Origin: Haplodiscus bocki | Lineage: Eukaryota | Assembly (NCBI GenBank): GCA_965655095.1 | Contig: OZ296657.1 | Span: 13,268,001-13,332,000 of the forward strand | DNA length: 64,000 nt | Reading direction: 5' to 3' | Shown: in pieces, positions 28,111 to 51,332 of the stretch | Layout: the number at the start of each line of letters is the position of its first letter | How positions within the stretch are numbered: position 1 is the first letter of the stretch | Notes under the pieces: generated by a model | The model's input: the letters and a program-made list of their open reading frames with translations, nothing else | The model's database searches: none | Told to the model about the DNA's origin: nothing | Position numbers and translations under genes: made by a program

Positions 28111-29947
28111 TGTCGAGCGGGTGGTAGAATTCGGTTCGAAATTATGTTGACACAGACTTGTCATTTTCTTGGTGTGCGGCCGTTACTGATTAAATAAATT
28201 TAAGTCTCAAAGTTGCCCTACCGGCCCGCGTAAAGTATAGCGTGAATTCGCTAGCAAGGACTTAATGAATAGCTATTGGGTGGCTAGAGAATTTGTCAAA
28301 GAATTTGTTTAACGCAAGCAGTTCTGTTATATAAAGTAGGAAATTTATGGCTTGCATATAATACTTGTATTGTCAAACTTGCCAGAGATTTCACAAGGGG
28401 GGCGGTACTGTTTTAAGCGCAGAAGATTTGATTCAAATTCCTTTCTTTTCCAAAAACATTCAAAGTAAGAACATTAGCAACTTTACCGTTGAACTCTGTT
28501 TGATCAATATTTACCAACACTCAGAAATTTAATGCGGAATTATGAATCTACAATTTTTAACTGAAAAATGAAGAAAAAATTGTTGCACGCGCTTTTAATT
28601 GACGCGGAATTGAAACACAAAAATAACAGTAGCTCCAGTGATGAAAAGTAACATCTTTTCTAACCTTGTAGGAGATGAGTTGCCTTTGAGCACCATCTAT
28701 TTGCGTCGAGTTTGTACTAGAACGGAGAAAAAAATCATCGGTATTTTCTAGCAGTTTTTTTTAAAAAAGAACCTCTAAATCAGTTTTAGCTAAGACTACG
28801 TAATTCGCGTAATGAATCAACCTAGCGAGTTCTCCTAGGCCATTACATAGTTGTCAACCCGTAGAATAAAATCTAGGGATTTCGTTGAACGCTGGCTCAG
28901 TCTCGATCAGAAGGTTGACTTAATAACTCAGACACTGTGACTCGGTTTATGGCGTAGCAACCGTGCAATTTCTCCTAGGTTCAGGCAATTACTATCGGAT
29001 AACCAATGAACCTGATTCTGATTGAAATTGGGTTAGTAGGTAATTTCATCTAAGACTCAGCATCATTTCACTTCAATGGAGGCAGCCAATAAAAGCACAA
29101 CCCAGAACGGAAGGACCAAGAACCGATTTCTCTTAGGTATCAGGAAGTTTTGAAGAGTTCTTGTTCAGAGCAGTTTCCGTGGCAACTCTTGTTCAGAGTA
29201 TCTGCTGATGGACCCGATCTTAATTAACTAAGTTCATCTGGTGAGTTGTACTCTACCAGGGTAGTCTTTTTAGATACTAACAATCCGTTTTTTTCCCAAT
29301 GGTGGAATTAGGTTTATAGTTGATAGGTTTTTGGCTATATTTGAATCCTTTCCCAACGATTGGAAACTTCGAGTGTCTTGGAAAAGTTGTCTCTTTTCCA
29401 AAGATATAAACGTTACCAATGTCGGGAAGGCAAATTTCCGTGAAGGTTTCAAGTTTTGAGTTTCCAAATTTTTAGGAGAAGAGAATTGAGAATTTAGCAG
29501 TTTTTGCTTTCGGAGTTGGTAGTTGACGGTAGGCGATCAGGAGTTTTATAGTTTCTCCTGTTGGCGGCCGGCGCTCAGTCTTTCCGAACTCTCGTACCTT
29601 TCAAGGTTATGACCAAGTACGGTAAGCCTTACGCCAAGGAGCACCAAACAAGGTGATCCTCCAAAAAGAGTCAAAAATTGAAGTGTTAGGACGCAAGTTG
29701 TGACTTTTGTGAAGCAATGAAATCAAACTCCGAGAACGGGCGGTAACAAAGAGAAAAGCGTCGTTTCCATCGTCTGAGGCGTGCCAACGAAATTTTGAAG
29801 TTTCAAAATGTGCAATTCCAACTTTGTTCTCGCTCTCCAACAACTATCCTTTCAATCGGTAAGTTACTATTATTTTTCATTATAACTTTTATTATGTCAT
29901 TTCTAAATTTAGAAATAGCATTGTTTAGCGTTATGGCTAACGCAACA
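28111..29947 (-). repeat. 3' LTR (1837 bp)
   Basis: Direct repeat of 49488-51328; TGTCGAGCGG..CGCAACA; purine tract AGGGTGAG precedes it on the minus strand. Confidence 0.95.
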
Positions 29948-29988
29948 ACTCACCCTAGTAACAAAGTGTTGAAAATGATGGAGGGCCT

Positions 29989-30902
29989 CTACGGAAAAGG
30001 AAAGGGAAGAGAAGACTGGGTAGGTTGTTTTGGGGGGTCAAAAAAGGAAATATCAAGGTTACTGGTGTCATTGTAGAGATAGCCATCAGTTTCATTAAAA
30101 GTTTCGTATGTGGGAAGGAGCACGCGTGTCGCGTTGTTGGTAAGGTAGAGAAGTCAATTAAGGTTGGTCGGGTTGATTCTGTGGGCTCGATTGTTTGGCT
30201 CCAGGCATTAAGAGGGTTCAGTTGGTCACGCATTCTGATCTGGATTGGCTTTGAAACCGGCCGAGGCAGAATGTCATCATATTATCCTGCAGATATAGAG
30301 AGAGGGATGGAAGCCCATGTTCCGATAGCAGCGGCGAAACCGTAGGGGTACCAGTTCAAAGAAAAGTTTGAGCCGTATGGGTGAGAGCGAACGCTAGGGC
30401 TGCGAAGTTGGGTGATTGGAGCGTCTTCCCGCCCAGGTATCAGATACCATAATCTGGCGGAGTCAAACACCAGTTTTACAGAGGAAATCTTGAACAACAT
30501 GAAATTACAATTACTGTGCTCAAACTGGCAGATTTGGTCGCCCATAGTTGAGAGCTGAAATTGTAGTGAATTAAGCTTCAAAATGTATCTGCGCGTTTTA
30601 GAAGAACTACGCTTCTCTAAGACTCTAATTTTTTATGCGAGTGTCATTAATGAAGAAGACTTACTTGTTATTTGTTGGTCAAGTAAGTCGATCTGGGGCT
30701 GTAGAAGAGCGAAGTCTCTTTGGAGACGTTGGACCAGCTGCTTGAGGGTTGTCCGTTCTAATTCTTCTGTCTCCACATGCCTGCGCAACTGTTGTAGAAT
30801 AGAATATATCACAATTGCAGGTGATAGCGTTGAATATCTATCTATAGGAGGTGCTTGGGTGGGCAAAGTAAATTCCTCAGGTAATCCAAATAATCCAGGC
30901 AA
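29989..30902 (-). pseudogene. TRAF-like gene (coiled coil + TRAF-C/MATH domain) inside the LTR element
   Basis: Coiled coil LERTTLKQLVQRLQRDFALLQPQIDLLDQQI; then MLFKISSV..LRSPSVRSHPYGSNFSLNWYPYG..GTWASIPLSISAG*YDDILPRP..IRMRDQ..GYLYNDT..ISF, matching the TRAF MATH pattern (IWKI..SPPFYT..GY..LYLNG..GTHLS..GEYD.LLPWP..LLDQ..Y.KDDT). Confidence 0.8.
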
Positions 30903-31100
30903 AAAAATAACTCGTTTTCAACAAACTAGTAAAATCAAAAGTTTAGACAAAATTGAAATAAAAAACTGAAATTTAAATTATTACTGTGAATTAGCTGTTA
31001 TAGCTCGGAGCGGTGCAACAAGTCGCTGAGAGGAGAGGAGCGTAGTCCCGATGGTAATTTCTTGTCGGTGGCTATTCCAGAGGAGTAATTCCCAGGAAGA

Positions 31101-31604
31101 TTATTCCCGTTTCAATCTATAATGCAGATGAGGGTTGAAACGAAGGCATTTCACGACTCTCGCCAGTCGAGCGAAGTGTTCTCTTTTGTGTTGTCGGGAA
31201 ATTGTAAGTCTATCTCGGCTACTAGAGTTTTGGCTGGTGGGTCCTTGCAAACTGCGTAGTTTCCGTTTGGATCGGCCGCGAGCACTGCGGGAAGAAGAAA
31301 TCTTGGATCTAGCGTCTCCAACAGAAGAAGAAATGGTGGAAGGTTGTAATTGGTCACAAGTGACAGTAGGAGCAGAGCAAAACGAAGATAATCCTTTTGT
31401 TGTTGATACAGTGTCCGATTGTGCATCGGGTGGAGCAGGGTTTGACGGGACAGTTATTGAAGGAGGGGAGAAAAGAGTTACTACTGGCTCAACTGGCTGT
31501 CCCAAAGTTGATGGCGTCAAAGTTAGAAAGTCGAATTCCAGATCCGTCAAGACAGGCAATGGGTCGTCACTCTCCCTTGCTTGAAAATCTAAACACTGAA
31601 GCAT
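31101..31604 (-). CDS. Accessory ORF, Ser/Thr/Pro-rich with basic C-terminus (167 aa), unknown function
   Basis: Open 167-codon frame right after env, same strand; SRSARGRSKRKLR basic tract. Confidence 0.45.
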   Translation of the reverse strand: MLQCLDFQARESDDPLPVLTDLEFDFLTLTPSTLGQPVEPVVTLFSPPSITVPSNPAPPDAQSDTVSTTKGLSSFCSAPTVTCDQLQPSTISSSVGDARSKISSSRSARGRSKRKLRSLQGPTSQNSSSRDRLTISRQHKREHFARLARVVKCLRFNPHLHYRLKRE

Positions 31605-31620
31605 TAAACGAAAAAAATTG

Positions 31621-33747
31621 TTAAACAGGTGACAATGGTAATGTTACCGTTCTCATTGCAGAGTAGAGGTGCTTTTCTTTCTTTTTCGCACCCTCTTTCA
31701 CCTCATGCATATCCTTTTTCACACATGGACCTACCTCCATGTGTTCAACAGCGGTTAGCGCCGGAGCACGTGGGTTATACATGGAAGTTAACACAGTTGT
31801 CAATGCAATATTGTATGATGCACTCAGAAAGGTCTTACCAAACCCCAGAGTGGAACCGGTTAACTTATCTATTTCCATGTAACGCATGATCATAACTATT
31901 ACATCAATTAAAAACTTGATGAACAGAAAGAATGAAAAATAGATTCCGCAATGCTCAAGTACGTAAACTACAGGTCCAAATGTGTCCAAAAACGGATCTT
32001 TAAAATATCGAGCTGAAATAATCTTAACCACAAAGAACTCGGTTCATGAGGTATATTAGTGAAAACCGTCTGTACCTTCTTGGGCAGTGGTGTAGACAAA
32101 AAAAATTTGTGCGAAAATTTTAAGTACCATTCTCGAAGCCGCATTGATAAGGATGCTATCACAAAATCCTTTGCTCGTTACGAGTGTACATGCCTGCATC
32201 CTGTAATCCAGTAAAAGTGTGAGAAGCAACCGGGCTAATATACTGAGGTCCAAATATGGCAGGTTTGTCTTGATGTACGATACCAGGTGTTAGGGTATAC
32301 CAGGAATCTTCCTGATCCATGTCGAGTTGGAACAGGTTTTTGATGCGATCAGAACAGTTTTGAGTCGTAGCATGAGGATAGGTTTGTCGGGTTACAGGGT
32401 CAACGAATTGAATTTGTCCTCTGTAAAGAATCAGAATTTTATTATAGCACTGGTTCATTGTGTGAAGAGGCGAATAAACTTTTGGGCAAAGGTAGAGCCA
32501 TGCTACGCTTCCATATGTTTCCAGAAACATTGATCGGTTACCATTGAGCATGTAGCCAGCCAAACGAGGGTTTTCATGGCCTAGCATAAGATTAGTCAAG
32601 GTTTGAGTACGTTCTTGTTCGCATTGGTTTTGTAATAACTGTATTTCCGTCGCTTGGAGTAATCGCGAGCTTTGAAAAAATAAAAAATAAATCTTCGTTG
32701 CAAGGTGCATTTCATGGTAGGCAATCTTCAAATAACTATCGGGGTTCTCTGTTTGTAACTTTTGTGTTCCCTCTAACTGAGGATTGTGAGCGTAAAGTTG
32801 AAGGAAGTGGCCTTTCTCCTTTGGTCTCAAAGTTTGTAGGATCTTGGTTGCTCCAGTTTGATCGCGACCCAGGTTTCTCCCGATGTCAATGTCAGAACCT
32901 TCGCTTGAGCTATCCATATAAAAAGAATCATAGTCTGTGGGTTGGATAGATGTTGGCTTTCCGCAATGTTTTTGAGTGTTGTTCTTCACTTCAAATACGA
33001 ATTTAGAGCTAGAGTCGGCTCCACTGATAACGTAACACTTTCTTCCTTGTTTTACCAGGTTAACCTCCTCAGTTCAAACAATCGAGATTTGCGCAGTTGT
33101 CAGGATAGTCCCATATGTAAGGATAGGGGTCTAACGAAGTAGTTTCACATCCCAGTTCTTCCAAAGAGCATGGTAAAATTAAACCAGTATCAGATAAAAT
33201 TTTCCCGTTTTCTAACGTAACTTTCAGAGTGGTGGTTTGCATGTGAGGGAGGAAGGTGTCACGAGTGATCCAACCTTTACTGTTACATTCATTCCTGTAG
33301 TCAACTCTGGTGTCACTAGAGGTTTCTACAATAGGGTTTTTTGTGTCGAAAACAAAACTTATCGAAAGCCCAAGTAACGCTCGACATTGTTCTGGAGAGA
33401 TAACAATGTGACTTGTAATTCCTGCAAAAGTGTGATCAATGCTGCTATGATCATGGTGTCCACAATGCTTTTTTTTTCCGGACGTGTTGTAATTGGCTTT
33501 TTGTAACCTTTAATTCTTTTCTAAGATGTTTGGTGAAAAGGACAACTTTAGCCTTACTTATTTCCAATTCTTCAGGCATAATAAGGCTAGGTCGTACCTG
33601 ATTTATGACGTAAAGAGATTTATCAGTCATTTCACTGCAATCAAAATGAGCTGCATTCAGAGCATAGCCAACCTGATCTTCATCTGGAGTTAAATTGAAA
33701 GCTACTTCGACAGTATGTGCGACCATTTGGAAAAATATTAGCTTCAT
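31621..33747 (-). pseudogene. env: env: chuvirus-like class III fusion glycoprotein, frameshifted
   Basis: N-terminal hydrophobic stretch, AAHFDCS (YDC-type start), Cys-rich ectodomain, helix LQNQCEQER..LAGYML, AWLYLC..QCYNKILILYRGQIQFVDPVTR, C-terminal TM GIYFSFFLFIKFLIDVIVMI. Confidence 0.75.
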
Positions 33748-34915: not shown

Positions 34916-35309
34916 ATCACATCTGAGAACGATGCTTCAGTTAAAACACAGCTTTAAACTTTTCTTTAAAAAAACTAAATATTATTTTAGAGTATTCATT
35001 GAAAATAAGTTTAAGGTAAAAAGTTTTATTCAATTGATTTAGGCGGTTTAAAAATTAACAGAATCGTGCACCAATATTTTATGTTCTTTTCTTTGTTCCA
35101 TTCTTTTTTCCGTTTTGCTGTGCTTTGTCACAGCAGGGTCTTCCGGGGGAAAAGTGCATTTTTTGTCGGGTAGGGAAGAAATAAAGTCAAGAATGAAGTG
35201 AGGAAATGATGGATTGAAGAGAACTGGATGCGGGTAAACAGAGAAGTAATTTTTGTCGTGTAGGTACTTTTGGTGGTATTCCATTTGTTATTCCCTTTGT
35301 TGTTATAGG

Positions 35310-35765
35310 ATGGCAGAACCCCCGCCATTCGTCGTGGAGGTGGTAGGGTGGGAGAGGATTGACCCTCTCCCGGAGCTCCCACTCTTCCAATCCACGGCCA
35401 AAGAGTCGTTTGGCGGCTCTCTGTACATCTTCGGGGAGCCCGCCATCTTTTGGTTAGACGGTTGGAGAGCCTTTATGAGGTATCAGCGGGGCAATGATGA
35501 AGCACCAGTTAAAGAGGCCCCGGTGTTGGCAATGTTCCGGAGTTTCTTGGTCCGTTTTTATGGAGAAAACTGGGAAGCGACGGTCTTTTCCGACTCGGGG
35601 GAGGTGCTATTGTTCGAACTCCGAGCAATCCTTGCCGGGTGGCTCGGCCTCACAATGGAGCAGAGGGAAGAGTTTGCTCTGGCCATGGACGGTTGGCCAC
35701 AAGCTGTTTTCCGGGCGCGGGTTAGGTCCATGGCGAAAGCCGGGCGCTTCCGGTGCCTGGAGTGA
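35310..35765 (+). CDS. Antisense accessory ORF (151 aa), GC-rich, unknown function
   Basis: Open ATG..TGA frame MAEPPPFVVEVVGWERID..AGRFRCLE in a GC-rich island; preceded by pyrimidine tract + TAG (acceptor-like). Confidence 0.55.
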   Translation: MAEPPPFVVEVVGWERIDPLPELPLFQSTAKESFGGSLYIFGEPAIFWLDGWRAFMRYQRGNDEAPVKEAPVLAMFRSFLVRFYGENWEATVFSDSGEVLLFELRAILAGWLGLTMEQREEFALAMDGWPQAVFRARVRSMAKAGRFRCLE

Positions 35766-36375
35766 GCAACGCCTGCCGGCAGGGTTATCCTTCCCCGTTG
35801 GTTTGGCTCTTGTTATGTCCAAACCATTCCTCTGCATGGGAAGTATTCATTTGTATTAGGATTAAACATTCCAAAATTTGTGAGAAGAATACAACGTAAG
35901 TTTTAAAAACCAATGAAATTGCCATCTGTTATTTCGGGTAAGACGGTTGAAGTTGCTGGAAAGAGTTGAAGAGGAGATAGGTTAGTGTGAATGAAAGTCA
36001 GAAATTCCTCCATGATTGGGTCTAGGTGTTCAAGGGAATGATATCACAAAAGTTCATAAAGGCTTGCCATTGCAAGAGAATTACAATGGATTTGAATGTT
36101 ACATTTACGCTTGAGATCCTGTTGAAGTGTGATTGTAGAAGAGGTGTGAAACACACACGGACAATGTGTGTCGAATAACTCCAGTAAGCCTTAGTCAAAA
36201 GCACTGTGTCTAGGGCCAGATCGGACCAAAAATGAGTGACCGTCCACTTGCAGTTAGGGTATAATTTGTGACATTCAGGCATCTTGTGCTGAATATAACG
36301 AATGAAAAAGTAGTTAGTATGGATCTAAAGAAACAGAAGGTGGGCGAACACTGAGCAACAAAGAATTGTTGTCTC

Positions 36376-38150
36376 CTAAAGTTTATAACGCTGACGAGTG
36401 AGGGTACGAAGAACCGATTGAGAATTAGGATCGTTTGGCTGAGGTCTGTAATACCTTGGTTCTCTTGCTTTAGACTTGAGACTGTTCCGCAGAAATTGTT
36501 GTATCAGAGTAAGTGGTCTGGTTGCAGCCGAAGTTGACAGTTTTTCCTTCGCCGTCTCCTGTGAATGTTGTGATAGTTGTTCAGGTGTATTGGGTAGGGT
36601 TGGCGAGAAAAATTGAGGTGAGTCAACTCCCGAGTCACTGCTGGTGACTTTATCACGTTTGAGTGAAGTGATTGCCCGAGCCGTAGGTGATGGTTTGATT
36701 GGAAATGGAATGGGGTCTTCTGCGACTGGCTCAGTAAAGCTGTTCATTTTCCCAATTCTTTCTTCCAAGAAACGTTCATAAAAATCGTCATCATGTCGTT
36801 GGTCGTGTGGTACATATTCTTCAATCATAGCTGGTAATGATTCTTCTTTAGGATAGTATTCAACCAAATGGTTAGGGTGGACCGTTTGCATAACTGATCG
36901 GTCGTTGTAGTCTTGAATTTGATAGGTAGTACTAGTTATACGCTTGATAACGGCAAATGGACCCAGTCGTCGCTGTTGTAGTTTTTGACTTTTTGATAGG
37001 TCCTGCCGGTGGTTTTCGTAAAAAACTTTCTGACCGACGCCCAGACGGCGTCCTACTTTAAATTTGTTCCTGTATGCATGGGAACAAGCCCTCTGTTCGC
37101 GACATCTTTTCAAAGTAGGGGAAAAAATGTTTAAAGTCTCGCTCTCGATCTAACGGAGGGTGAGAAAGCTGTGGTTGAAGTAAATTCTGGAGAAGCTCAT
37201 TCTTCGTAGAGTTCTCGTCGTGAGTATGAGGAGGCAAGTCCGTACAGAAGTCGGAACAACATAAGTTATGTTTCTTTCGGTAGTGTCCCAATTTGACAGA
37301 CATGGGAATTTGTGGTTTGGCGTCGAAGACGATTTCGTAAGCCGTTTTACCAGTCGTGTAATTAACACTGGCATTGTGCTCGAACGCAAACTTTGGCGCG
37401 AGAGAAGCCCAGTTAGTGCCAGCATCGTTCAGAGAAATTCTCCAATAGCGAGCAATTTGCTGGTTCTGAGTCTCTACTTTGCCGTTTGTCTAAGGCGAGT
37501 GAGCTGTACGTGGTCGAAGGGTAATTCCCAACTCTTTAGTCCACTTGATGAAAACTGTGTTGAAAAAGGTTGTCACTCTATCGTTTATGATAGACTGAGG
37601 AATTCCAAATTGAAGTATCCATTTTCCGACTGCGGCACTGGTAGCTTGTGCTCCGGTATTAGTAACAAGATAGACCATTGGGAAACGCGAGAAAGAGTCA
37701 ACTAAGAGGAGACTATGGGTGTTCCGGTTACTCGGTGGATGGAAAAGTCCTTTATGGTCGATATTTATTGCGCAAAACGGTGCGGTATCACTTGGCCATT
37801 CTTCCAACGGTACCTCGTTAAGATGTTTAGGTTTTGGTTTATTATTCTGGCATGCAAGACAGTCAGCTGTTAAGGCCCAGATCCAGTCGAACATCCCTGG
37901 CCAATAATATAATCTTTTAGCGTTAGCATACGTCTTTGAGGCTCCCACGTGTCCTCTTATTAAAATGTCCCATGCGGAAGCAAGCTGAGAAAAGAGGTAA
38001 AGGTAAGCAGATTCGTAAGTTCCTTTCGGTTAATGTATCAGAAGGTTCATTATTACACAGAAGTTTGCCGTGCTCTTCTATGAGTAGTCGATCTAGCTCT
38101 TGGCCGTATCTGAGCAGACCTTTAGACTGTCAGTTTTCTGGAGCTTTTAG
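36376..38150 (-). pseudogene. pol: pol: integrase (HHCC, DDE core, GPF C-terminus)
   Basis: HVGASKTY..YYWPGM..CLACQ; NIDHKG..LVDSFSRF..FGIPQSIINDR..TNGKVE; RRLGPFAVIKRITSTTYQI. Confidence 0.9.
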
Positions 38151-38899
38151 GTCAGGAGAGATACCTCCTTGAATCCAGGAGCGTACAACACTGAGCATTG
38201 GATCTTTTGTGTTGCTCGTGTAATATGGTAGGAACATCAAGATAGAAAACCTTTACAACATCAACCAGATTGGTAATCAAATCCCGAGTTCTCAAATGAA
38301 GAGCAGCCGTAGCTGATAGTCTCTTTTTTGCGAAGAAGGTATCAGGATTACTAAGTACCGAGTCATGAGTTGCTCGAGCCTTGCATAGGCGGTAGTGATC
38401 GTTGGCATTGATTTCACAAGCGTAGGCATCTTCATGCTCGTTCATATCGCAATCTTCGTGAACTCTATGAGTTCGACGTGTGAAGAGGCTCCAGTGTCCT
38501 CGGTTCGTGCCGTCTCAGTCACATTGATAGAACTGTGTGTTCCAGTGGAGCTTCCAGATGGTGATAATGATACTGAAGACTGTGGTCTGCACGGCCGTCG
38601 GAACTGGTTGATAATTTCTCCCATTCGGAAACAGTCTGAAGCTAGCTGTACTGAAGACGTAGCAAGGTCAGTACTAATGGTATTAGTAGAAAAAATTTCA
38701 CCGTCAATATGCAATCGGAGTATCTTCTGATCTTTGCCTTGTTGGCAATGAATAGGGTAAAAATCGTTACACGTATCAGCTGTGGTATCTTCGTGGTTTA
38801 TTCTGTACGTTATCTGTTGTCCTTATTCGTCAAAAAACTGAATATCTTGTGGTAGTTTTTTGTGTTGAAGTTGGTGATTTTGATATTCGTCAATGATCA

Positions 38900-39542
38900 C
38901 GTTCCGGTTAAGTATATCAGTGAACGCTTGGTTAGATCCTGGCGTCCAGATGATCTCCAAATTCTGGAACTTCGTTATTATAACCTGTTACCTGAAGAAC
39001 CGATGGGATAACTGTCTTTTGCGTCCCCATAGAGAGAGGATGGGTTTGTGGTCACAATACAAGTATATTGGAAAAGGAGATCCAATAATGTAATGCTCAT
39101 AAGTTTGCAAAGCTGAGACAATCCCACACAATTCCCTGTGGAGTGTTGACATCTTTCGTTCAGCTTTTTCAAAAAATTGAGAATTGAAGAAAATGATTCG
39201 CTTCTCTTCCGCGAACTGTTGTATTAGAATGCAACCAGTTACAACATTAGACAAATCTTCGTGACTATGAATACGATACTCAGTTAAAGGAATGGCGAGA
39301 CTTCTATTTTCACTGATTCTATACCTTATCATTTGGAAGACCTTCTAGTGATTTTCAGTCCAATGGAACAACGTAGAACCTCTAATGAGCTCGTAGAAAG
39401 GTTTTCTGCCCACGTGAAGGTTTTTGATGTAGCAACTGTAAAATCCAAGATATCCCTGCACTTTCATAACATCTCGTTTGCACTCGGGTGATTTGAGATT
39501 CTTTAGGTCATTGACCCGTTTGGCAATTAGCTGTATTCCGTC
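38900..39542 (-). pseudogene. pol: pol: RT C-terminus and RNase H
   Basis: DGIQLIAKRVNDLKNLKSP; GCILIQQF..STLHRELCGIVSALQTYEHYIIGSPFPIYLYCDHKPI. Confidence 0.9.
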
Positions 39543-39547
39543 GGTAG

Positions 39548-39668
39548 GCCTAGACCGTGCAGCAAAAATCAGTTTAATATTGGAGGTAGGCAGTGCCTAC
39601 CATGCCAGATATTAAGCTGACAAGAACAGATACTACACATGATCTTAGCCAAAAGGCCGAGAAGAGAT
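39548..39668 (-). ncRNA. U2: U2 snRNA copy, 3'-truncated (nt 1-121)
   Basis: ATCTCTTCTCGGCCTTTTGGCTAAGATCATGTGTAGTATCTGTTCTTGTCAGCTTAATATCTG.. with branch-recognition GTAGTA and Sm site GATTTTTG. Confidence 0.95.
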
Positions 39669-39766
39669 AACCCAAAAATATTCTATCTCCACATATAAAT
39701 CACAAATGTAACTTCCATCATGCAGTTTTTCAAATTCGCACATTCTCAGCTACCCCAGCTATGACC
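39669..39766 (-). promoter_or_regulatory. U2 upstream region, probable snRNA promoter
   Basis: ~98 bp nearly identical to 44138-44235, upstream of the other U2 5' end. No PSE consensus recognised. Confidence 0.55.
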
Positions 39767-40547
39767 TTGACTTCTTACAACATGACAGGACAACGATCCA
39801 ACGTCTTTGCATTCATTGTAGGCGCTAATTGTGGTAGTTGTTGCCAAACATCATGACACTGAAACTGAAACGCAAACTTTTGACCTTCAAAATTATGTTA
39901 TCAAACAGGTTGTCATCGAAAGTGCATGTAAAATGATTTCGCTAGAACACCCGTTAATGGTCTCAAAATGAGCAATTCACTTGCCAAAATGGTTCCGTGA
40001 GAAACTTTTGCAGTTTACGTACACCCAAACGTGCTAAAGCGCCAAATTGGTCTGACAGAGCTACGTAGGTCTGACAGAACTGTAGGAACCTGCAAAAACT
40101 CTTTTTGTCTACGTCAACGGCAAGTCAAAAAAGGATGTCCAATTCTCCGTAACATTACGTAAGAGTCCTAATTCACAAGTTATGAGCTTAAAATTGGCAC
40201 AAAACCAAGCACCCGCGAAGCAGTAGCAAAAAAAACCGTAAAACCAAACGTCCCAAAAGACAACGTATGCAACCTTCTGACTGATGCACACTTCTTATTC
40301 CCCAAGAAGAGTCTTCAAGCCTGAAAAGACTTCTGGTTGAGTCGAATAACCTAACTTATGGGCGATACTGGAAGAAAAAGATGAGAAACAAAAAATTCAG
40401 CTATACTGCAAACACGAAAACCCAAAAACGAACTTCATCAAACGATTCAACAAAAATGCATAACATCACTCAACACACTCATTATTTCAACTTCAAGGAT
40501 CACTGTTTAGGTCCAGTTGAGTAGGTAATGAGTTCAAAATGGTCGAT

Positions 40548-40696
40548 TGGGTCGTACCCGGTGGGAGTGTAAGACCGGGACAATCCCTGGTCCGGCTAAA
40601 GCAAGCTTTTTTGCCTAGACCGTGCATCAAAAATCAGTTTAATATTGGAGGTAGGCGGTGCCTACCATGCCAGATATTAAGCTGACAAGAACAGAT
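40548..40696 (-). ncRNA. U2: U2 snRNA 3' portion (nt ~38-186) downstream of the retrotransposon insertion
   Basis: ATCTGTTCTTGTCAGCTTAATATCTG..Sm site..stem-loop IV CCCGGT-CTTACACTCCC-ACCGGG..GACCCA. Confidence 0.93.
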
Positions 40697-43600
40697 GAAA
40701 TATTTGAATTAGTATAAATAAAACAAAATATACGAGGTAAGTTTTTTTTCAAACACTGGTTAGAATCATACATTTACAAAAGTAAATATCAAGAAAAATG
40801 GGGTTTGAGTTTTTGTCAGAAAAAGTTTGATTAATAGATTTGCGGAATTCCTGTCAGATGTTCTGCGGAGATGTTTCGGGAATGGTGGATGACAAGAGCT
40901 GCGGCTTTGCGAGTAAACGTTGTGATGTCCTTCTTGCTGCGGATGAACTTCTGGAGCACAGGGTATGAGGATCTCGAAAAACTGCCCAGAGTACCCAGCT
41001 GGATTGTGGCGATTGAGGTAGAAAATCCACTGACTTCATAGGCTCGTTTCAAGTTCTCATATTTCACTTGCATCTGCTGAGCATTCCATTGGAAAGTTTC
41101 TTGAGATTCAGCAGATACTTTGATGTCAATGATGGCAGCTTCTTTGGTCTGTTCGTCCTGCACAATGATGTCCGGCTGCATGTTTCCAAAACGTTGCTCC
41201 TTCAAAATTCTTAGCCGATGAGGAAACTGAGAGGCTAGAAGGTCTCGGACATCGTTGTGCCGTTTAATGATTTTCTTCCTCATCACGCTGCAGTTACTTA
41301 ATGTATGATTTAGGGTCTCACGGTCGGCTTGGCATTGACGGCAGTTTTGATTTTCAGGAAGATGATTCCACACAAAGTTTGATCTTACAGGGACTAGATT
41401 TAGCCTTGCGCGGTGGATGAATCTGAAGTCGCAGAGTTTTGTATGAAAGTTGAAGACTGCTTTAGTTGTTTGCGGTGTTTCGGCCAAAGTCCTCCAGAAT
41501 CGTCCTTGATTCGGCGCCCGTTGTATTTCTTTCAAACTCTGTTTCTGCAGGTATCGGGTAAGAACAGGCCAAGGGTCTCGGTACTTGGCGCCTTCTATAG
41601 AAAGCGTGACACTGTCCTCCAGCATGGTCAGTTCGACGTCTGTGTCCAGGTACTTTGCTAGTCTTCGTAAGCTTCTGGCTGTTTCCTTGATTGTATCACC
41701 GTACCCTCTCACGCTACCACTGTTGATTGCGTCTATAGCTTCTTGCAATGTTTTGTCGTCGAGTAACACGCGCTTTAGGTATTCGCCAAATGGTCCTGTT
41801 GTATTGAGGCTTCGGATGAAAGTTTGGAGAGTCATTTTGCTTTTGGCGAGAACTAGATCTGGCAGACCGGGACCACCATACATGCGATGAAGATGCAGGT
41901 ATGCCGTAGCAGCCCTTTCGGGTAGGTACAAAAGTCGTTTGGTCATTCTCCGAAATTGTCGATTCATCTTCTCCAGTTGGGTCATTGTGCTGTTAGAGTT
42001 CTCAAGCAAGTGGAACAGCATCGGGTAGATCTTTATTCGCAGTGCATGCAGTTTTTGCATTGGGGTCAACTCTGAGCATTCAATTAGTTCAGCCATGCGG
42101 AATGTTTTGTCGAAACACGAATCCAGTCCTTGGATTGTTGAGGGGAACGCTTCTGTACCAAGGTACTTGTATGCCCTGTCATCTTGGACCTCGGGAATGG
42201 ATGTTCCGTCAATGTCCAAAGTCAGAGACCTCAGATTCGCTACACCACACTTCTTTGCATTGAAAGAAAAACCAAGACGTTTTGCCAATTTCACTGTTCT
42301 GTTGAAAATGTCTTGGACCTCACTTTCTTCGTCTATGATGATGGCCAAATCATCCATATATCCAAGACAAACTGAGTTGGCCGACGTTGCTTCTTTGAGT
42401 ACGGGGTCCAAAACCAGATTAAAGAGGAGACCACTTAATGGGCAGCCCTGCTTGACACCGCGTGTGACTGGTACTGGTCCTGCGAGTTCTTCTCCTTCAA
42501 CGCTCACAGGCGTTGTCTTGCACCCCGCATATCTTATCAGCTCCACTATCCACTGGGGACAGTTGCACTGCTTTAACGCCTCGAAGATTAGCTTCTGGTC
42601 TACACTATTGAATGCATCTGACAGGTCCAGATAGATTACTGTCTTTTTCTTCTTCAGAGCGTTCCCAACTGCCAGTGTGTTTTCAGAGACACCACGTCTT
42701 CCAAAAGCAGCTCTTTGGCAGAAACCAATGCCTTTATTTACTTCAAGCCATTTGCTCAAGCGTTTGTAGAGAATGGAGGCGAGTAGCTTGTATGACACGT
42801 TTGACAGGGCTATTGGTCTAAAGCAGCGAAGTTCTTTTTCTTGACCAGCTGTGTACTCCTCTGGCTTCTTGAAGAGCATCATACTATTGTATGATTTCCA
42901 GCAGGACGGAGTTAAGCTGCTATAACCCATCGCATGTAGACCTTCAGTAAAATTCTTTGCGAAAACTTTTTCTTGTCTCACTTTGTCATAAGTCCATCCA
43001 TCTGGTCCTGGGGCTGAGTTTTTGTGTTCTAGTGCTCGTTCAACTTCGTACACTGTGAAACGACGGGCTAGGTCTTCTCGTCCCTCATTGCATGGCAGCC
43101 AGTGTCTTGTTGTCAAAGATGATGCCCCGTTGTTGTTTGGAGCACTCAACTGCTGTAACAGGCCATAGCGAAGATCTATCTCATCGACTTGACAAATGAT
43201 TTCAGGTACAAACTCGATGCGTTTCAATGCCGCTTTCATATCTTTACTGTAAAGTTTTTGTAATTCTGCAGCAGTCATCCTTGATTGCTGATGATGTGTC
43301 CTTCTCGCAGTGTTCCGTTTCATCTTTTCTTTCGGAGGCAGCAAAGCATTCAACCATTCGTCACATTCTTCGCCTTGCCAATTCAGATCGTTCTCATGTC
43401 TTTCATAGCTGTCGGGATTGACGCTTTCAGCATCGGTGTCATCTAGCTCTGCCAAAGGGGTACTAGAGACTGTACTAACAGATAGCAAGTCATCTGCTGT
43501 TTCGGCCACCGCCACAGTTTCTTCTATCGGTAACAAGGGCAAAGGAGGAGCAGGGGGTGCTGGTGGTAGTGATGATGACGCCGGTGGAGGAGACAGCCGC

Positions 43601-44107
43601 GACTTGGATGCAAGAGTAAGGGTTACCTTGCATTTACGTCTGTGACTACTCAAAGCCTTCTGAGTCCCAAACGAGCTGTTGCAACTGGGACATGGGTAAG
43701 TAGTCACCTGCACCGACGGGTCCCCGAAATGAGAACCTTGATGTGTTGTAGCTTTTCTGCGGTCACTTGTCAGGAACTTACAGTAAATACACTCAAAAAC
43801 CAACTCGTTTGCTTCTCTGCATCCAGGATCGCTCTGTCTGCAGACCCTCGAGTGTCGAAAAACGTCTCTCTTGAACGCGGACTCTTTGATGGCTCGGTCA
43901 CACGCCACACAGATTAGTGGAAAAGCCACAGGGAACGGCACCACTGCAGTTTGGCCATCGAAAATGAAGCTCGACATCTGCACGGCTCGACACGTGAGGT
44001 TGAAGCTGTCTCACTGCTCCTCCTGTCTTCTTGGACACTTCCTGCTGTCGTCTTGCTGTAGCGTCAGGAAGTAGGCTCGTCTTGACTTCAAGCTCGACAA
44101 AGAACAC
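40697..44107 (-). mobile_element. U2-targeting RLE non-LTR retrotransposon (Utopia, NeSL group)
   Basis: Single ORF inserted in U2 after nt 37/38 (GTAGT(A)|TCTGTTCTT), same orientation, no poly(A). Confidence 0.9.
40831..43977 (-). CDS. Intact non-LTR polyprotein (~1048 aa): three N-terminal Zn fingers, RT, CCHC, restriction-like endonuclease
   Basis: CVAC..H..C, CIYC..H..H, CPSC..H..C; SAPGPDG, FRPIAL, LDLSDAFNSV, GVKQGCPLS, YMDD, YKYLG; CRQC..ETLNHTLSNC, RHN, QPDI..IIDIK. First ATG at 43977 (the track starts at GTG 43983). Confidence 0.95.
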   Translation of the reverse strand: MSSFIFDGQTAVVPFPVAFPLICVACDRAIKESAFKRDVFRHSRVCRQSDPGCREANELVFECIYCKFLTSDRRKATTHQGSHFGDPSVQVTTYPCPSCNSSFGTQKALSSHRRKCKVTLTLASKSRLSPPPASSSLPPAPPAPPLPLLPIEETVAVAETADDLLSVSTVSSTPLAELDDTDAESVNPDSYERHENDLNWQGEECDEWLNALLPPKEKMKRNTARRTHHQQSRMTAAELQKLYSKDMKAALKRIEFVPEIICQVDEIDLRYGLLQQLSAPNNNGASSLTTRHWLPCNEGREDLARRFTVYEVERALEHKNSAPGPDGWTYDKVRQEKVFAKNFTEGLHAMGYSSLTPSCWKSYNSMMLFKKPEEYTAGQEKELRCFRPIALSNVSYKLLASILYKRLSKWLEVNKGIGFCQRAAFGRRGVSENTLAVGNALKKKKTVIYLDLSDAFNSVDQKLIFEALKQCNCPQWIVELIRYAGCKTTPVSVEGEELAGPVPVTRGVKQGCPLSGLLFNLVLDPVLKEATSANSVCLGYMDDLAIIIDEESEVQDIFNRTVKLAKRLGFSFNAKKCGVANLRSLTLDIDGTSIPEVQDDRAYKYLGTEAFPSTIQGLDSCFDKTFRMAELIECSELTPMQKLHALRIKIYPMLFHLLENSNSTMTQLEKMNRQFRRMTKRLLYLPERAATAYLHLHRMYGGPGLPDLVLAKSKMTLQTFIRSLNTTGPFGEYLKRVLLDDKTLQEAIDAINSGSVRGYGDTIKETARSLRRLAKYLDTDVELTMLEDSVTLSIEGAKYRDPWPVLTRYLQKQSLKEIQRAPNQGRFWRTLAETPQTTKAVFNFHTKLCDFRFIHRARLNLVPVRSNFVWNHLPENQNCRQCQADRETLNHTLSNCSVMRKKIIKRHNDVRDLLASQFPHRLRILKEQRFGNMQPDIIVQDEQTKEAAIIDIKVSAESQETFQWNAQQMQVKYENLKRAYEVSGFSTSIATIQLGTLGSFSRSSYPVLQKFIRSKKDITTFTRKAAALVIHHSRNISAEHLTGIPQIY

Positions 44108-44137
44108 CTGATCTCAGCCAAAAGGCCGAGAAGCGAT
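44067..44137 (-). ncRNA. U2: U2 5' end (nt 1-~30) followed by a diverged U2-like leader
   Basis: ATCGCTTCTCGGCCTTTTGGCTGAGATCAGG-TGTTCTTTGTCGAGCTTGAA..GCCTACTTCC. Confidence 0.85.
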
Positions 44138-44235
44138 AAAACAAAAATATTCTATCTCCACATATAATTCACAAATGTAACTTCCATCATGCAGTTTTTC
44201 AAATTCGCACAATCTCAGCTACCCCAGCTATGACC

Positions 44236-44590
44236 GCTTTTCAAATTTATTGCTTTTGCCCGCATTGGAATTATCCTTCTGAATATCGTTGCAACCAACT
44301 TTTGAACTTCCGAGATTTTTTGCTGGAAAAGGTCGTTATTTGTCTGATCATTCAATTTATGCTCGATACCTAATTTTTTGATTTTCTTTTGTGTTTCATA
44401 ATTTTGTATGCTTTTCCCACTCAAAATCTCTGTTTCATCAACATTAACAGATAGTTGAGTGGCATCGCAAAAACACTTTACTCTGTCAAATAAGGTTTCC
44501 AGAGATCTACTTTTAACGTAACAAGTTTTATCATCAGCATAGGCTGAAACTTTAGTGACAAAATTGGTGTTTATAAAAGGGTCGTTATAG
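44236..44590 (-). pseudogene. L1/Tx1-like non-LTR RT fragment
   Basis: KVSAYADDKTCYV..FCDATQLSVNVDETEIL..IKKLGI. Confidence 0.75.
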
Positions 44591-44597
44591 GGTAGGC

Positions 44598-45330
44598 AAA
44601 ACAACGTGTCCTAAAACGTTCACTCTTTGAGGAAGAAGAATGTTTTTTCCTGAGCGGGTTTCAGACCGGCTTCCCTCATTAAATTGTGGTACTCGTGGAT
44701 ACTCAAGAGCATTTCTCCTTTGTTTTGTGATTGCATTATAGTGTCGTCTATGTAGGTTATTGTTGTCTTTTTTTTTAATCAGCGGCTCGAAATGGATTGT
44801 CATTAGTCGGCTGAAAAACTTAGGTAATCCACATAGTCCATAGAACCCTCCGATATATGTGTACTGTCTACCACCAATGATAAAGCTAGTCAGCTTCTGG
44901 GTTTCAGGACTCAGTGGTACTCGATGGTATGTGCAGGATAGACCACTGACAGAAAAGAATTTTTCGTTTACTCAAGATCATTTGTACAGGTTATAGAGGT
45001 CACGAGTAGTTAGTAAGGTCAGTGACAGATTTTAGGAATCGAGCTTCTATGACTTGTTTCATATAGTCGCTTTTGTGCATCAGAATGATGCGGTTAACAA
45101 ACAGTGATCTCATTTTGTCATTGTCTCCCATTTCTCGAATAATAATTTCGTCATTTAGTTGAGTTAAGGGTTTCTCCAGTTTTTTTTAAGTGCAGTGGTA
45201 CTTTGCTAGGTGTCTGCTTTTTCAATTCTACACTTGGTTTCAACTATACATGAAACTTTTGACGAATTTTACCAACGTCGAACTTGTGTTGCGAGTAGAC
45301 ATACCTAGAATCAAATAACATGTCGATAAG
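44598..45330 (-). pseudogene. pol: pol: RT N-terminal part
   Basis: YSQHKFDVGK, KVPLH, YHRVPLSPETQKLTSF, ITYIDD, FLGHV; resumes at 39542. Confidence 0.9.
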
Positions 45331-45629
45331 GAGAGTCACCTTTTCATCGGTAATATCAGAGAACTGGAAGCCAAATTCCTTCATGTATTGCACAAGTTCT
45401 TTCGGCTGGTATTGTAAATAATGTTCAATCAGATGATTGTTATAATCTTTATCCCGAAATGTAAGAAACTGTTCATCGCATGTAGGCTGACAAGATTTAG
45501 CTTCTCTAGTGAAATCCGTTTCCAAGTCTCTGCCGTGCAATAGAACTCTTCGCTGTACCTTTCGATTTCGTCGTCAGCTTAGAAGTCGAGGTCTCCTTCT
45601 GAGGACAAGGCATGTACTCCATTTTTTTC

Positions 45630-46056
45630 TAAAGTGTAAACTACTATTCGAATATTTGAGTCGGCGAAAAAATCCTTAAGTAGTTTTACAACATCTTGCC
45701 AGTTCATTTGATCAAGTCCGCATCCAATTGTAGGAATTGCGATGGCCGAGATTCCATACAATCGTGCATGGGACTTCATTTCCTCTAGAGTTAAAGATAA
45801 GGTACGTAGGTTAGGTTCTTCAGAATAATAAGTTTTCGTCACCAAATTGTAGATATATCGGTTCCCAACGTGGTCCCATAATTGAAAGGTTTGCCCTGTC
45901 AATAATTTTGTCCGTCTGCATGCATCTCGAAGTCCAAGAATCTGTTGAGAGCAGGTCGGCGAACCCTTTGCTCATCTTAGCATCGGCTGAGATGCAAAGC
46001 CCAATGGAGTGTGGTTGTTGCAATGTTGAGTCTTTGGTACCAAGGATAATTTGTAA
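45630..46056 (-). pseudogene. TARG1/OARD1 (Poa1p-like) macrodomain within pol, one frameshift
   Basis: SIGLCISADAKMSKGFA..RYIYNLVTKTYYSEEP..LEEMKSHA..IAIPTIGCGLDQMNWQDV..IRIVVYTL aligns by eye with human TARG1 (SLAHCISEDCRMGAGIA..RYIYYLITKK..LEAMKSHC..MPRIGCGLDRLQWENV..ITVYTL). Confidence 0.9.
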
Positions 46057-46499
46057 ACAATCATCTGGAGATTGCGCGGGAATTTTTGAGTGTAAAAGAA
46101 AACAGTCATTGCATTTGTTGTCACTAGTTATTATGGCATTGGTTAACTCATAGGGGTTCCTGATTTGGTACTTTGGTTCTTTTTTATTGACTACTTCCAA
46201 AAACGAAAATCCATTTCGTCCTCTAGGGAGCCTTATCTGACGGTTTTTGTTAGTTTCGATCAGTATTGGGAGAGTGGGTTCAGGCTGAGTGCATATGATA
46301 TCAACAAAAAAAAGACCAGTCGACACCGCTTCCCTGTTGGGTTGAAAAGTTGAACCAGGAGGGATGAGAGACTTAGGATCTCCAGGCGAGTACTTCCAAC
46401 ATCTTGCTCTTTTAGCGTCAACGTGCATAGTATAAAGCAACCGGTTTGTTAGAATTCGAGAAACATGAGGAAAGCTTTTGTTTTGGTGAAGATTTCCAT

Positions 46500-46840
46500 A
46501 ACAGAAAGTTTTTGGAGGCTGCCATAGTTCATTACCGGGTGAATTGAAATGAATTCCGGAAGTCTGGTTCTAACAGAAGTCCATCCCGAGGAGGTATTAA
46601 GTTTTCGTTTTCGGAATCCAGACAGTTAGAGGAAATGAATATTCACCATTAGGGTCTTAAGTGAACTCTATAGTGGCGTAACCGATCATTAGTACTATTG
46701 GCTCGAATAAGTTTTGGTTAATTTATTGATTCTCTGCACCATTTTAGGATGTGGGAATTGTGAAATCTCCCAGAAAGTCCGATAAATGATGATCGAGCAG
46801 GAAACTCCTGTATCCAGCATGAATTCAATTTCTAGTCCAC
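46500..46840 (-). pseudogene. pol: pol: aspartic protease
   Basis: IEFMLDTGVS at 46801-46830; LLGMDF at ~46575-46595. Confidence 0.85.
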
Positions 46841-46986: not shown

Positions 46987-48380
46987 TCAATCGAACTGCA
47001 TGAGAACTAGGTTGGTCATTCGTTTGCGAAAATCGCTGTTCATAGGGGACAAAACTACCGGATTCTTGACTGCTGGATCGTCAAAATATTTAATTATTGG
47101 GCCTACTAGACCGCCAGGGCTGAAACTGCCGGCTCGGCTGTGAGTCTCGTCTTGGGCCAGAAGGAGAGCATGGATTGGTTCCAATATTTTGCCAGGTTCC
47201 TCTCGTCGGCGTTCCGGGAGAACCATTCCTGTAGTAGTTGTCATCATTCCTGTTAGCGAACTGATTCTGGTATCAATCAAACGATGGTCCACGACCAGAA
47301 CTGAATGAATTGTTTCTGGACGGATTACCCCAAATAATTCCTACGTAGAATTGTGTAGTTTCTTCGTAAGTCGCTTGTTGTGCGTCGGTTGTGTCCCTTC
47401 TAGCTTGATTTATGCTTCCAGCATTGTTATGAATGAACTTTCCAGATCCATGACTAGGTCCTCGGCGTTTGTTGTAATCGGTCCTGAATGTTAAGCGTTT
47501 TTGAGCCATCTTCCCGTTCTGTACTTTTTTGATTTCTTCATCCCGAATTTTCTTCCTACACCAGCTTGGAGTGTGTCCGTTGGTGTGGCAGTAATTGCAA
47601 AACTGCGTGGCGTTTTGTCGGCCCTTTTGGTTAGGGTCGGGTTGTCGTGTATTCTTCAGTGCAATTTCTCGATTGTCCTGTAGCCCGGAACGCAGATTTT
47701 TCATTTCTTGGGCCAGTGAGGCCAGTTGGATTTTGGTCTGTTCCTCATCATTGAGGAAGTTCGAAGAGACTTGATAACTTACGTATCGTTGGATGATTCG
47801 TGTGGAGAAATTGTTCCATTTTGCGTTAGGATTTTCCATCAAGTATTCTTGTGCTTTTCGTTGTAAGTATCTTGGACGAAGTCCTCGTAGAGTATAATCA
47901 ATGTATCAATGTCGCCTTTGTCTCCCTTGTGCTTGACGTGCTGCAGCTCTATCACCTTCTGCAATACCTTTCATGTCAGCAGGCCATCCTTTGTCGACAA
48001 TATTCTTTATTCGATGTAAAAAAACTTCTGATTTCTTCTCCGTCGCCTCGCACACAGTGTTCTACTTCCATTCTGTGACGGAATTTAATCCATTCGTCGG
48101 AAAAATTTGTTATGAATTGTTCCCGTGTGGCTGCCCAACTGGTGGCATTCTCGATATTATTTTCATACCACTCTGCCGCTGGTCCTCGGAGTATAGAGGA
48201 AAAAAGTGACTTTTTGCGAAAAGTATAACTAACCAAATCATCAAAATCCGCGGGTGCATCACCTAATGCGAAGTTTATTTTCCTTTCTATAAGTTGGACA
48301 AAAGATTCAGCGTCCTGGTCGGGATCAGTGCCAGAGAAACTTGTCTAAGGCTAAATCGGGGTATGCGAGATGACTGCTAG
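46987..48380 (-). pseudogene. gag: gag, frameshifted
   Basis: FSGTDPDQDAESF..LRGPAAEWY..; zinc knuckle CNYCHTNGHTPSWC (CX2CX4HX4C). Confidence 0.9.
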
Positions 48381-49467: not shown

Positions 49468-49485
49468 CCTCACTGGTCGCACCAA
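49468..49485 (-). other. Primer-binding site
   Basis: TGGTGCGACCAGTGAGG starts ~3 nt after the 5' LTR; tRNA species not identified. Confidence 0.7.
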
Positions 49486-49487: not shown

Positions 49488-51328
49488 TGTCGCGCGGGTG
49501 GTAGATTTCGGTTCGAAATTATGTTGACAAAGACTTGTCATTTTCTTGGTGTGCGGCCGTTACTGATTAAATAAATTTAAGTCTCAAAGTTGCCTTGCCG
49601 GCCCGCGTGAACAAAGTAAAGCGTGAATTCGCTAGCAAGGACTTAATGAATAGCTATTGGGTGGCTAGAGAATTTGTCAAAGAATTTGTTTTACTCAAGC
49701 AGTTCTGTTATATAAAGTAGGAAATTTATGGCTTGAATAAAATACTTGTAATGTCAAACTTGGCAGATATTTCACAAGGGGAACGGTACTGTTTTAAGCG
49801 CAGAAGATTTGATTCAAATTCCACTCTTTTCCAAAAATACTCATAGTAAGAACGTTAGCAACTTTACCATTCAACTCTGTTTGATCAATGTTTATCAACA
49901 CTCAGAATTTTATTACGGAATTATGAATCTAAATTTTTTAACTGAAAGTTGAAGAAAAAATTGTTGCACGCGTTTTTAATTGACGCGGAATTGAAACACA
50001 AAAATAACAGTAGCTCCAGTGATGAAAAGTAACATCTTTTCTAACCTTGTAGGAGATGAGTTGCCTTTGAGCACCATCTATTTGCGTCGAGTTTGTACTA
50101 GAACGGAGAAAAAAATCATCGGTATTTTCTAGCAGTTTTTTTTAAAAAAGAACCTCTAAATCAGTTTTAGCTAAGACTACGTAATTCGCGTAATGAATCA
50201 ACCTAGCGAGTTCTCCTAGGCCATTACATAGTTGTCAACCCGTAGAATAAAATCTAGGGATTTCGTTGAACGCTGGCTCAGTCTCGATCAGAAGGTTGAC
50301 TTAATAACTCAGACACTGTGACTCGGTTTATGGCGTAGCAACCGTGCAATTTCTCCTAGGTTCAGGCAATTACTATCGGATAACCAATGAACCTGATTCT
50401 GATTGAAATTGGGTTAGTAAGTAATTTCATCTAAGACTCAGCATCATTTCACTTCAATGGAGGCAGCCAATAAAAGCACAACCCAGAACGGAAGGACCAA
50501 GAACCGATTTCTCTTAGGTATCAGGAAGTTTTGAAGAGTTCTTGTTCAGAGCAGTTTCCGTGGCAACTCTTGTTCAGAGTATCTGCTGATGGACCCGATC
50601 TTAATTAACTAAGTTCATCTGGTGAGTTGTACTCTACCAGGGTAGTCTTTTTAGATACTAACAATCCGTTTTTTTCCCAATGGTGGAATTAGGTTTATAG
50701 TTGATAGGTTTTTGGCTATATTTGAATCCTTTCCCAACGATTGGAAACTTCGAGTGTCTTGGAAAAGTTGTCTCTTTTCCAAAGATATAAACGTTACCAA
50801 TGTCGGGAAGGCAAATTTCCGTGAAGGTTTCAAGTTTTGAGTTTCCAAATTTTTAGGAGAAGAGAATTGAGAATTTAGCAGTTTTTGCTTTCGGAGTTGG
50901 TAGTTGACGGTAGGCGATCAGGAGTTTTATAGTTTCTCCTGTTGGCGGCCGGCGCTCAGTCTTTCCGAACTCTCGTACCTTTCAAGGTTATGACCAAGTA
51001 CGGTAAGCCTTACGCCAAGGAGCACCAAACAAGGTGATCCTCCAAAAAGAGTCAAAAATTGAAGTGTTAGGACGCAAGTTGTGACTTTTGTGAAGCAATG
51101 AAATCAAACTCCGAGAACGGGCGGTAACAAAGAGAAAAGCGTCGTTTCCATCGTCTGAGGCGTGCCAACGAAATTTTGAAGTTTCAAAATGTGCAATTCC
51201 AACTTTGTTCTCGCTCTCCAACAACTATCCCTTCAGTCGGTAAGTTACTATTATTTTTTATTATTACTTTTATTATGTCATTTCTAAATTTAGAAATAGC
51301 ACTGTTTAGCGTTATAGCTAACGCGACA
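49488..51328 (-). repeat. 5' LTR (1841 bp)
   Basis: TGTCGCGCGG..CGCGACA (7-bp terminal inverted repeat); direct repeat of 28111-29947. Confidence 0.95.
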
Positions 51329-51332
51329 ATAC

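Follow-up and report, generated by a model that had tools for sequence, protein, structure and literature searches.

The presence of env genes of the herpesvirus gB type in Ty3/Gypsy retroelements has been described by Chary and Hayashi (eLife 2026, PMC13524379), who report env-carrying Ty3/gypsy 'errantiviruses' of the HSV/gB type with a C1 cysteine configuration. In supplementary file 2 of that study, the motif C-G-x-H-S-H-[TSI]-S can be read in the env rows of Insecta_C1, Platyhelminthes_C1a and mosquito BEL elements, while its genome table shows no row for Xenacoelomorpha, Placozoa or Chaetognatha. Section 9 of the same article states that herpes gB requires partner proteins, and whether the gB-type errantivirus env fuses membranes without partners is left open there. 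Chuvirus-like glycoproteins have also been found with BEL and with Gypsy fragments (Dezordi 2020 and 2023; PMC7642597, PMC10084718). A gB/chuvirus-type env in a Gypsy element is already published (PMC13524379, PMC10084718), and the elements described here represent one more, very large family.

The env gene analysed here lies in a 64,000-nucleotide stretch of the genome of Haplodiscus bocki (contig OZ296657.1 of assembly GCA_965655095.1, positions 13,268,001 to 13,332,000), referred to below as the window, whose own numbering is used for all coordinates. The element that hosts it is a two-LTR Ty3/Gypsy of 23.2 kb on the minus strand (28111-51328), flanked by a 4-bp target duplication, ATAC (28107-28110 and 51329-51332). 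Its LTRs are about 1.84 kb long; the 5' LTR (49488..51328, minus strand) is 97.6% identical over 1842 columns to the 3' LTR (28111..29947, minus strand) and has TG...CA ends. The primer-binding site (49468..49484, minus strand) is 17 nt long and complementary to the 3' terminus of a tRNA whose anticodon is CAU (Met), and the same site is found in the sister copies. For the primer tRNA itself, a first tRNA pattern had zero genomic matches, a second one, built on the T-arm and acceptor, had nine, and an Rfam tRNA match with a CAU loop reached 30.2 bits; ARAGORN called no tRNA gene at four loci of this second pattern. At the other end, a short purine-rich tract, AGGGTGAGT (29948..29956, minus strand), precedes the 3' LTR and is likely to be the plus-strand primer, with GGGTGAG in this position in 12 of the 13 sister copies examined.

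In the coding direction, gag is followed by the protease region, the macrodomain, RT, RNase H and integrase; after a spacer of 2.6 kb come env, an ORF of ~208 aa, a TRAF-like ORF and the 3' LTR, so that gag, RT, RNase H and integrase are encoded upstream of env on the same strand. The fragmented gag (47273..48344, minus strand) is recognised by PF03732 (E 4.6e-5) and weakly by PF19259. The pol gene, also fragmented, is divided into a 5' part (44599..46569, minus strand), with the protease region, a TARG1-like macrodomain (45579-45971, minus strand; PF01661, E 5.6e-5) and the start of RT, and a 3' part (36376..39542, minus strand), which holds the end of RT, RNase H, integrase and an SH3-like tail (PF17917, PF17919, PF17921, PF00665, PF24626). 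RT is split by a nested insertion of 5 kb (39543..44598), sister copies aligning up to 39542 and again from 44599. This insertion carries an open non-LTR-type RT ORF of 1059 aa (40831-44010, minus strand; PF00078, E 2.7e-31, zf-C2H2, zf-RVT), in which N-terminal C2H2 fingers and a C-terminal CCHC plus restriction-endonuclease-like motif can be read by eye; it is flanked by direct repeats of 132 bp and 84 bp, with a second RT fragment at 44215-44610.

Sister copies with open frames show the complete pol organisation, in which the order PR-Macro-RT-RH-IN is formed by PR at residues 42-131, RT at 669-791, RH at 854-985 and IN at 1309-1474. The best PDB match of the sister pol is the yeast Ty3 Gag-Pol (E 1.2e-51), with foamy virus and MLV ranking lower, and since Ty3 is the best match among solved structures, the element is assigned to Ty3/Gypsy; no BEL-type families appear among the Pfam matches of the element and sister ORFs. 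Judged by its LTRs, primer site, pol order and RT/RH type, the env-bearing element is a member of Ty3/Gypsy (Metaviridae). All genes of the window copy are fragmented, and this copy is a dead element, older than its sisters, the nearest other LTRs being 85% identical to its own.

Several further elements were observed in the window. Small ORF pieces, one of them with a hydrophobic stretch, lie between the primer site and gag (48475-49095, minus strand) and have no convincing Pfam match. The pol-env spacer, of 2-3 kb, holds in several sisters an antisense ORF of 221-234 aa without a Pfam match (35128-35860 in the window; L021:8231-8893, L027:7810-8499 and L047:1601-2269 elsewhere). Outside the element, long degraded inverted repeats (6743-8508 with 15044-16855) surround an AT-rich region in which fragments resembling capsid and ATPase were discerned by eye, possibly the remains of a Polinton-type element. 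A 61-bp tandem array occupies 24886-25129, and a short 43-bp inverted repeat is found at 61980-62394.

The env gene (31621..33747, minus strand) is a broken class III glycoprotein gene of the gB/chuvirus-G type, identified by a PF24664 match, alignment to an open sister and the predicted fold of that sister. The original prediction, made from the letters alone, had proposed a chuvirus-like class III glycoprotein here on account of an FDC start, a cysteine pattern, a central helix bearing QC, a CY.K.....FVDP.TR motif and a C-terminal transmembrane segment, and all of these features are present on the minus strand. Reading from the Met at 33747 to the stop at 31621, a hydrophobic leader is followed by AHFDC and a Cys-rich ectodomain, the central helix reads LLQNQCEQER, CY-x-K precedes FVDP-x-TR, and a hydrophobic C-terminal segment ends at the stop; the motif differs from the one proposed only in its K-to-FVDP spacer, of 10 residues and not 5. 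The window env is not a single ORF. Aligned to an open sister copy, it consists of four pieces that correspond to residues 1-92, 91-227, 228-533 and 533-715 and are 68-84% identical to it; the reading frame changes three times (near 33475, 33089 and 32170), and three stops are present. The 304-aa piece (32162-33073) matches PF24664, Monjiviricetes_fusion, with an E value of 2.6e-19 and the open sister copies with one of 5e-41, and 25 of the 25 aligned env relatives match PF24664 without any other family. By these alignments, the similarity of env to PF24664 and to the sisters is not a product of chance.

The open sister env used to describe the complete protein has 715 aa and is 85% identical to the long piece of the window. 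Hydropathy, the sole basis for these two assignments, peaks at residues 1-19 (leader) and 609-627 (a single transmembrane peak), and four sequons are found. A model of the sister ectodomain built with 112 aligned relatives (pLDDT 80.4, pTM 0.62) replaced an earlier env model from a shallow alignment of 28 close copies (pLDDT 45). In a Foldseek search against the PDB, herpesvirus gB filled all of the best 33 rows listed (best E 2.5e-13, TM 0.22-0.30). VIA-align placed gB, rhabdovirus G and thogotovirus Gp at ranks 1-12, followed by PH domains, which match at model positions 40-279; its best match has a Z of 10.2 and an rmsd of 13.6 over 405 aligned residues, and gB domain IV is matched with a Z of 6.4 and an rmsd of 3.4. 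In BFVD, ranks 1-9 correspond to the G proteins of Tacheng tick virus 4 (a chuvirus) and of chu-, qin- and xinmovirus-like or unnamed viruses (E 1e-25 to 1e-28, 13-16% identity), with gB appearing first at rank 33. Whole-chain agreement is modest, with TM values of 0.25-0.30 to gB and 0.36-0.50 to the best viral G. Atlas neighbours of env are PF24664 clusters of negative-strand RNA viruses (Negarnaviricota; 0.96-0.97), although the recognition value lies below the tool threshold and is weak alone, while sequence searches of the PDB with env, as a single sequence and as a profile, returned 0 matches at E up to 10.

These predictions make the env product a class III fusogen that resembles chuvirus-type G more closely than gB and is far from both in sequence. 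Its modelled fold comprises a PH-like domain into which a long beta-hairpin fusion domain is inserted, a long central helix and a beta crown. The proposal that a class III fusogen of the chuvirus-G/herpes-gB kind holds the env position of this Gypsy element was thus borne out, with gB and chu-like G leading the three fold searches; a best match to baculovirus F or to a non-fusogen, which the original prediction had named as the contrary outcome, did not occur in any of them. An F-type env (baculovirus F, class I) was rejected on the same class III matches and on the absence of a furin site, R-x-x-R, from the open sister env. Fourteen ectodomain cysteines are kept in 23-25 of 25 aligned rows, among them C95 (23/25) and C162 (25/25), beside which the predicted fusion loops are found at the expected places. 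These loops are His-rich or polar, as in the published C1-type env, loop 1 reading WHCGHHDHSS here and HCGMHSHTS in relatives. The polarity of the loops was considered as a novelty and discarded, because the same motif appears in published C1-type rows.

With the C1 gB-type errantiviruses of PMC13524379, these elements share gag-pol-env between LTRs, a class III env with a leader and a transmembrane segment, a furin site that is not required, a multicopy state and an env that diverges with pol, as well as the loop-1 motif, read by eye against the Insecta_C1 and Platyhelminthes_C1a rows. However, the motifs of this clade occur in 0 of 229 domain I-II rows of supplementary file 2; the pol-env gap reaches 2-3 kb in lineages A and B; and the ORF after env, the TRAF fragment and the pol macrodomain have no counterpart in the main text of PMC13524379. 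Flatworm C1 errantiviruses show the order gag-env-pol (PMC13524379), in contrast to gag-pol-env here. Anakin, from mosquitoes (PMC7642597), likewise combines a Chuviridae-like glycoprotein, with an HCG-x-x-SH loop, and an LTR element, but it is a BEL/Pao element, whereas the pol of this family is Ty3-like. The G proteins of Jingchuvirales, Qinviridae-like viruses and Xinmoviridae coincide with env in Pfam family (PF24664) and predicted fold and are its best BFVD matches, although they are only 13-16% identical, and env is here retroelement-borne with no viral L or N nearby. Herpesvirus gB (PDB 2gum, 9e5v) shows the same class III domain set and is the best PDB match, yet identity is 10-11% and TM about 0.25, and the env studied here has polar loops and a shorter ectodomain.

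A search of the same genome with the 304-aa env piece yielded 130 scored matches from 5412 candidates, about 44 of which (hand count) are located in frames of at least 700 codons without a stop in the match, and a Pfam search of the genome revealed additional, more distant env lineages. Flanks were fetched for 17 env copies, and in all of the sister copies so retrieved the genes around env are the same. Compared with lineage A1, env is 78% identical in A2, 52% in B and 38% in C. In 13 sister copies with both LTRs at least partly covered, most of them selected for an open env, LTR identity ranges from 97.1 to 100% and is at least 99% in 10. The dN/dS ratio of env (Nei-Gojobori) is 0.07-0.24 in 16 of 18 within-subfamily pairs, copies having been chosen for open env with the consequent bias to young, selected ones; the remaining two pairs (0.46 and 0.55) both have very low dS. 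Between the window pieces and A1 sisters the ratio is 0.10-0.39, and between lineages dS is saturated. The family is young, abundant and recently spreading, and its env is under purifying selection. In one copy (L057, G000:C3:85281215), an internal deletion joins pol in frame to env, forming a frame of 1129 codons.

Accessory genes accompany env in these elements. The ORF that follows env (30984..31643, minus strand) has about 208 aa in sisters and a conserved basic core of ~85 aa, with one stop in the core of the window copy. This core, marked by a basic helix, Y-x-L, W, N and I, could be aligned in 10 elements, one of them a 27% relative, and occurs in all lineages for which enough flank is available, as far as that relative (window, L018, L027, L048, L050, L066, L046, L075, L076, L077 and L080). 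It has no Pfam or PDB match, and the protein may be regulatory or RNA-binding. The macrodomain of the sister pol matches structures of human C6orf130/OARD1 (E 5e-27); this TARG1-like domain is located between PR and RT in lineage A, forms the last part of the gag frame in lineage C (L043, L045), and was not seen in the distant element L076. In the distant relative L080, two uncharacterised ORFs of 295 and 1032 aa are encoded between pol and env (5806-9727).

The last gene before the 3' LTR (29955..30917, minus strand) encodes a TRAF-like protein with a coiled coil and a MATH domain, without RING or zinc fingers; the window copy has two stops, and its pieces are 57-74% identical to open sister ORFs. 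The latter match PF21355 (E 1e-14 to 4e-18) and the structures of TRAF1/5/2, and neither an N-terminal RING nor TRAF zinc fingers were found in Pfam scans of five element ORFs or in the sequences. This ORF is present in lineages A, B and D and was not seen in C or L076; a MATH search of the genome gave 150 scored matches from 2967 candidates, and dN/dS within subfamilies is 0.09-0.51 (17 pairs). Two single-copy host TRAF-like genes, 52% alike (L059/L082, G000:C5:50415523; L060/L085, G000:C5:9060192), share with the element gene the motifs FPL-x-N-x-K-x-FQYLHA and YPYG, and the grouping of the element TRAFs with this pair, which leaves out two other TRAF-like genes, is supported at 100/99. An intron with GT donor and AG acceptor sites interrupts both host genes at the same MATH codon, the last exon having been located by profile, whereas element copies read through this codon without an intron, as expected if a spliced mRNA was captured. 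In the ~14-24 kb upstream of either host gene, no exon for a RING or zinc finger was seen. The element gene was thus likely captured from the host TRAF family, in one or two events, as the lineage B TRAF is not resolved with A and D. By analogy with the general behaviour of RING-less TRAF fragments, the element fragment would act as a dominant negative or a diversion, and likely dampens or diverts host TRAF signalling.

The idea that a TRAF in a Gypsy element is unprecedented was dropped in view of Burro/GYPSM1, the planarian giant Gypsy, which, as described in PMC6431247, has an env and a MATH/TRAF-C domain, the latter a separate accessory ORF in one species. Burro is about 30 kb long, with env within the gag-pol polyprotein and BIR, BCL2 and ankyrin cargo (PMC6431247), whereas the element of this family measures 16 kb, has the order gag-pol-env and carries its RING-less TRAF as a separate gene, the last one before the 3' LTR; likely host TRAF donors are found in the same genome. 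A literature search that had most subscription journals and Repbase outside its scope listed no direct description of a TRAF or macrodomain gene in a gag-pol-env Gypsy beyond Burro.

The origin of env was approached with a profile search of 1.84 billion representatives, in which 317 proteins reached an E value of 1e-30 or better, the best 150 of them descending from 85% to 23% identity. No named protein is listed in the best 120, and none of 20 proteins looked up among the nearest relatives from outside has an informative name (18 unnamed, 2 'hypothetical protein'). IMG/VR scans with two env alignments gave 19 and 7 pattern matches, none of them confirmed, and a sequencing-run search for env listed no RNA data. 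Among seven metagenome env loci, the two that are long enough both show Gypsy pol upstream of env, and four of the seven also contain the ORF after env. L076, with an env of 40% identity, has a full gag-pol-env, and L080, at 27%, has Gypsy pol upstream, presumably in the same element. Across nine elements, env identity tracks RT identity (Spearman 0.875, 0 of 5000 permutations), a correlation inflated by four pairs of near-copies and accompanied by an RT tree with one of six branches well supported. A 39-row env tree, with no viral rows, shows a deep radiation in which the lineages of this genome are interleaved with proteins of other records.

Because env covaries with RT, its distant relatives are linked to pol and its tree is deep, env is, on sequence grounds, an old resident of the whole Gypsy clade, not newly taken from a chuvirus. 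The independent env capture that the original prediction had suggested is not supported by these data, given that relatives down to 27% adjoin Gypsy pol and that loop 1 carries the motif of published C1-type env. A direct chuvirus fossil was discarded as well, since identity to viral G is 13-16% and the neighbours are gag and pol. An older event, in which an ancestor of the Gypsy clade took env from an RNA virus of the jingchuvirus kind, separately from the C1-type errantivirus env already published, is possible but doubtful. It would agree with the chu-, qin- and xinmo-like G proteins as best structural neighbours, with the Negarnaviricota clusters of the Atlas, with the absence of the clade motifs WHCG, WYCG, YWCG, TSLDP and PTNY from all 229 domain I-II sequences in the PMC13524379 supplement, and with the six separate endogenisations of such glycoproteins counted in PMC10084718 (Dezordi 2023). 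However, the distance to viral G (13-16%) contrasts with a retroelement-linked continuum from 85% to 23% (best 150 of 317), loop 1 is common to published Gypsy and BEL env, and none of 16 ORFs scanned around six distant env loci encodes a viral RdRp or nucleoprotein; any separate viral capture would be very old. Solo, domesticated chuvirus-like glycoproteins are known in mosquitoes (PMC7642597), but the reading of env as a gene domesticated by the host, or as an isolated viral fossil near a retrotransposon by chance, is extremely improbable and is refuted at this locus, where env is broken, is enclosed by an LTR pair flanked by a target duplication and keeps its gene neighbours in all of the sister copies retrieved.

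As for function, the locus is best understood as the decayed env of a dead copy of an abundant Ty3/Gypsy family, whose predicted class III glycoprotein quite probably admits the particles of open copies to neighbouring cells. The earlier suggestion that env could make the element infectious fails for the broken window copy and is plausible at the level of the family. By analogy with known class III proteins and Drosophila errantiviruses, env of open copies would be translated from a subgenomic RNA and, as in class III proteins, displayed as trimers on the budded particle. Uptake of the particle by a neighbouring cell would be followed by acid-triggered refolding of env, probably at low pH, with a His-rich loop 1, and by fusion with that cell, so that the element could pass from surrounding somatic cells to the germ line and insert there, as Drosophila errantiviruses do. 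In this scheme, env descended with an old Gypsy clade, a processed host TRAF fragment was gained later by lineages A, B and D of this genome, and both this fragment and the macrodomain would weaken the responses of the host. A role other than entry for the class III fold, such as the blocking of receptors to exclude competing elements or a part in the budding of particles, could be argued from the polar loops at both predicted fusion-loop positions and from the partner proteins that herpes gB needs (PMC13524379, section 9). Such a role is nevertheless improbable, considering that all domains, the Cys pattern, the leader and the transmembrane segment are under strong selection in hundreds of mobile copies and that Chuviridae-like BEL env has the same His-rich loop.

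Returning to the reading of env as an entry protein, it can be tentatively proposed, as a bolder extension with less than even chances, that these elements form an uncatalogued and deeply diverse clade of 'complex' invertebrate retroviruses, possibly in a phylum outside the published survey, in which a cell-to-cell Gypsy would combine a chuvirus-type class III env with an accessory kit. As part of the same proposal, this kit would comprise a conserved regulatory ORF after env, an ADP-ribose-erasing Pol macrodomain and a RING-less TRAF derived from a spliced mRNA, acting as a dominant-negative decoy against innate signalling. The many natural open env copies offer material for asking if a gB-type env fuses without partners. 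A processed TRAF with identifiable donors, selected beside env and a macrodomain, points to innate signalling and ADP-ribosylation as host activities directed against elements, a kind of defence that would be expected if elements move between cells like viruses.
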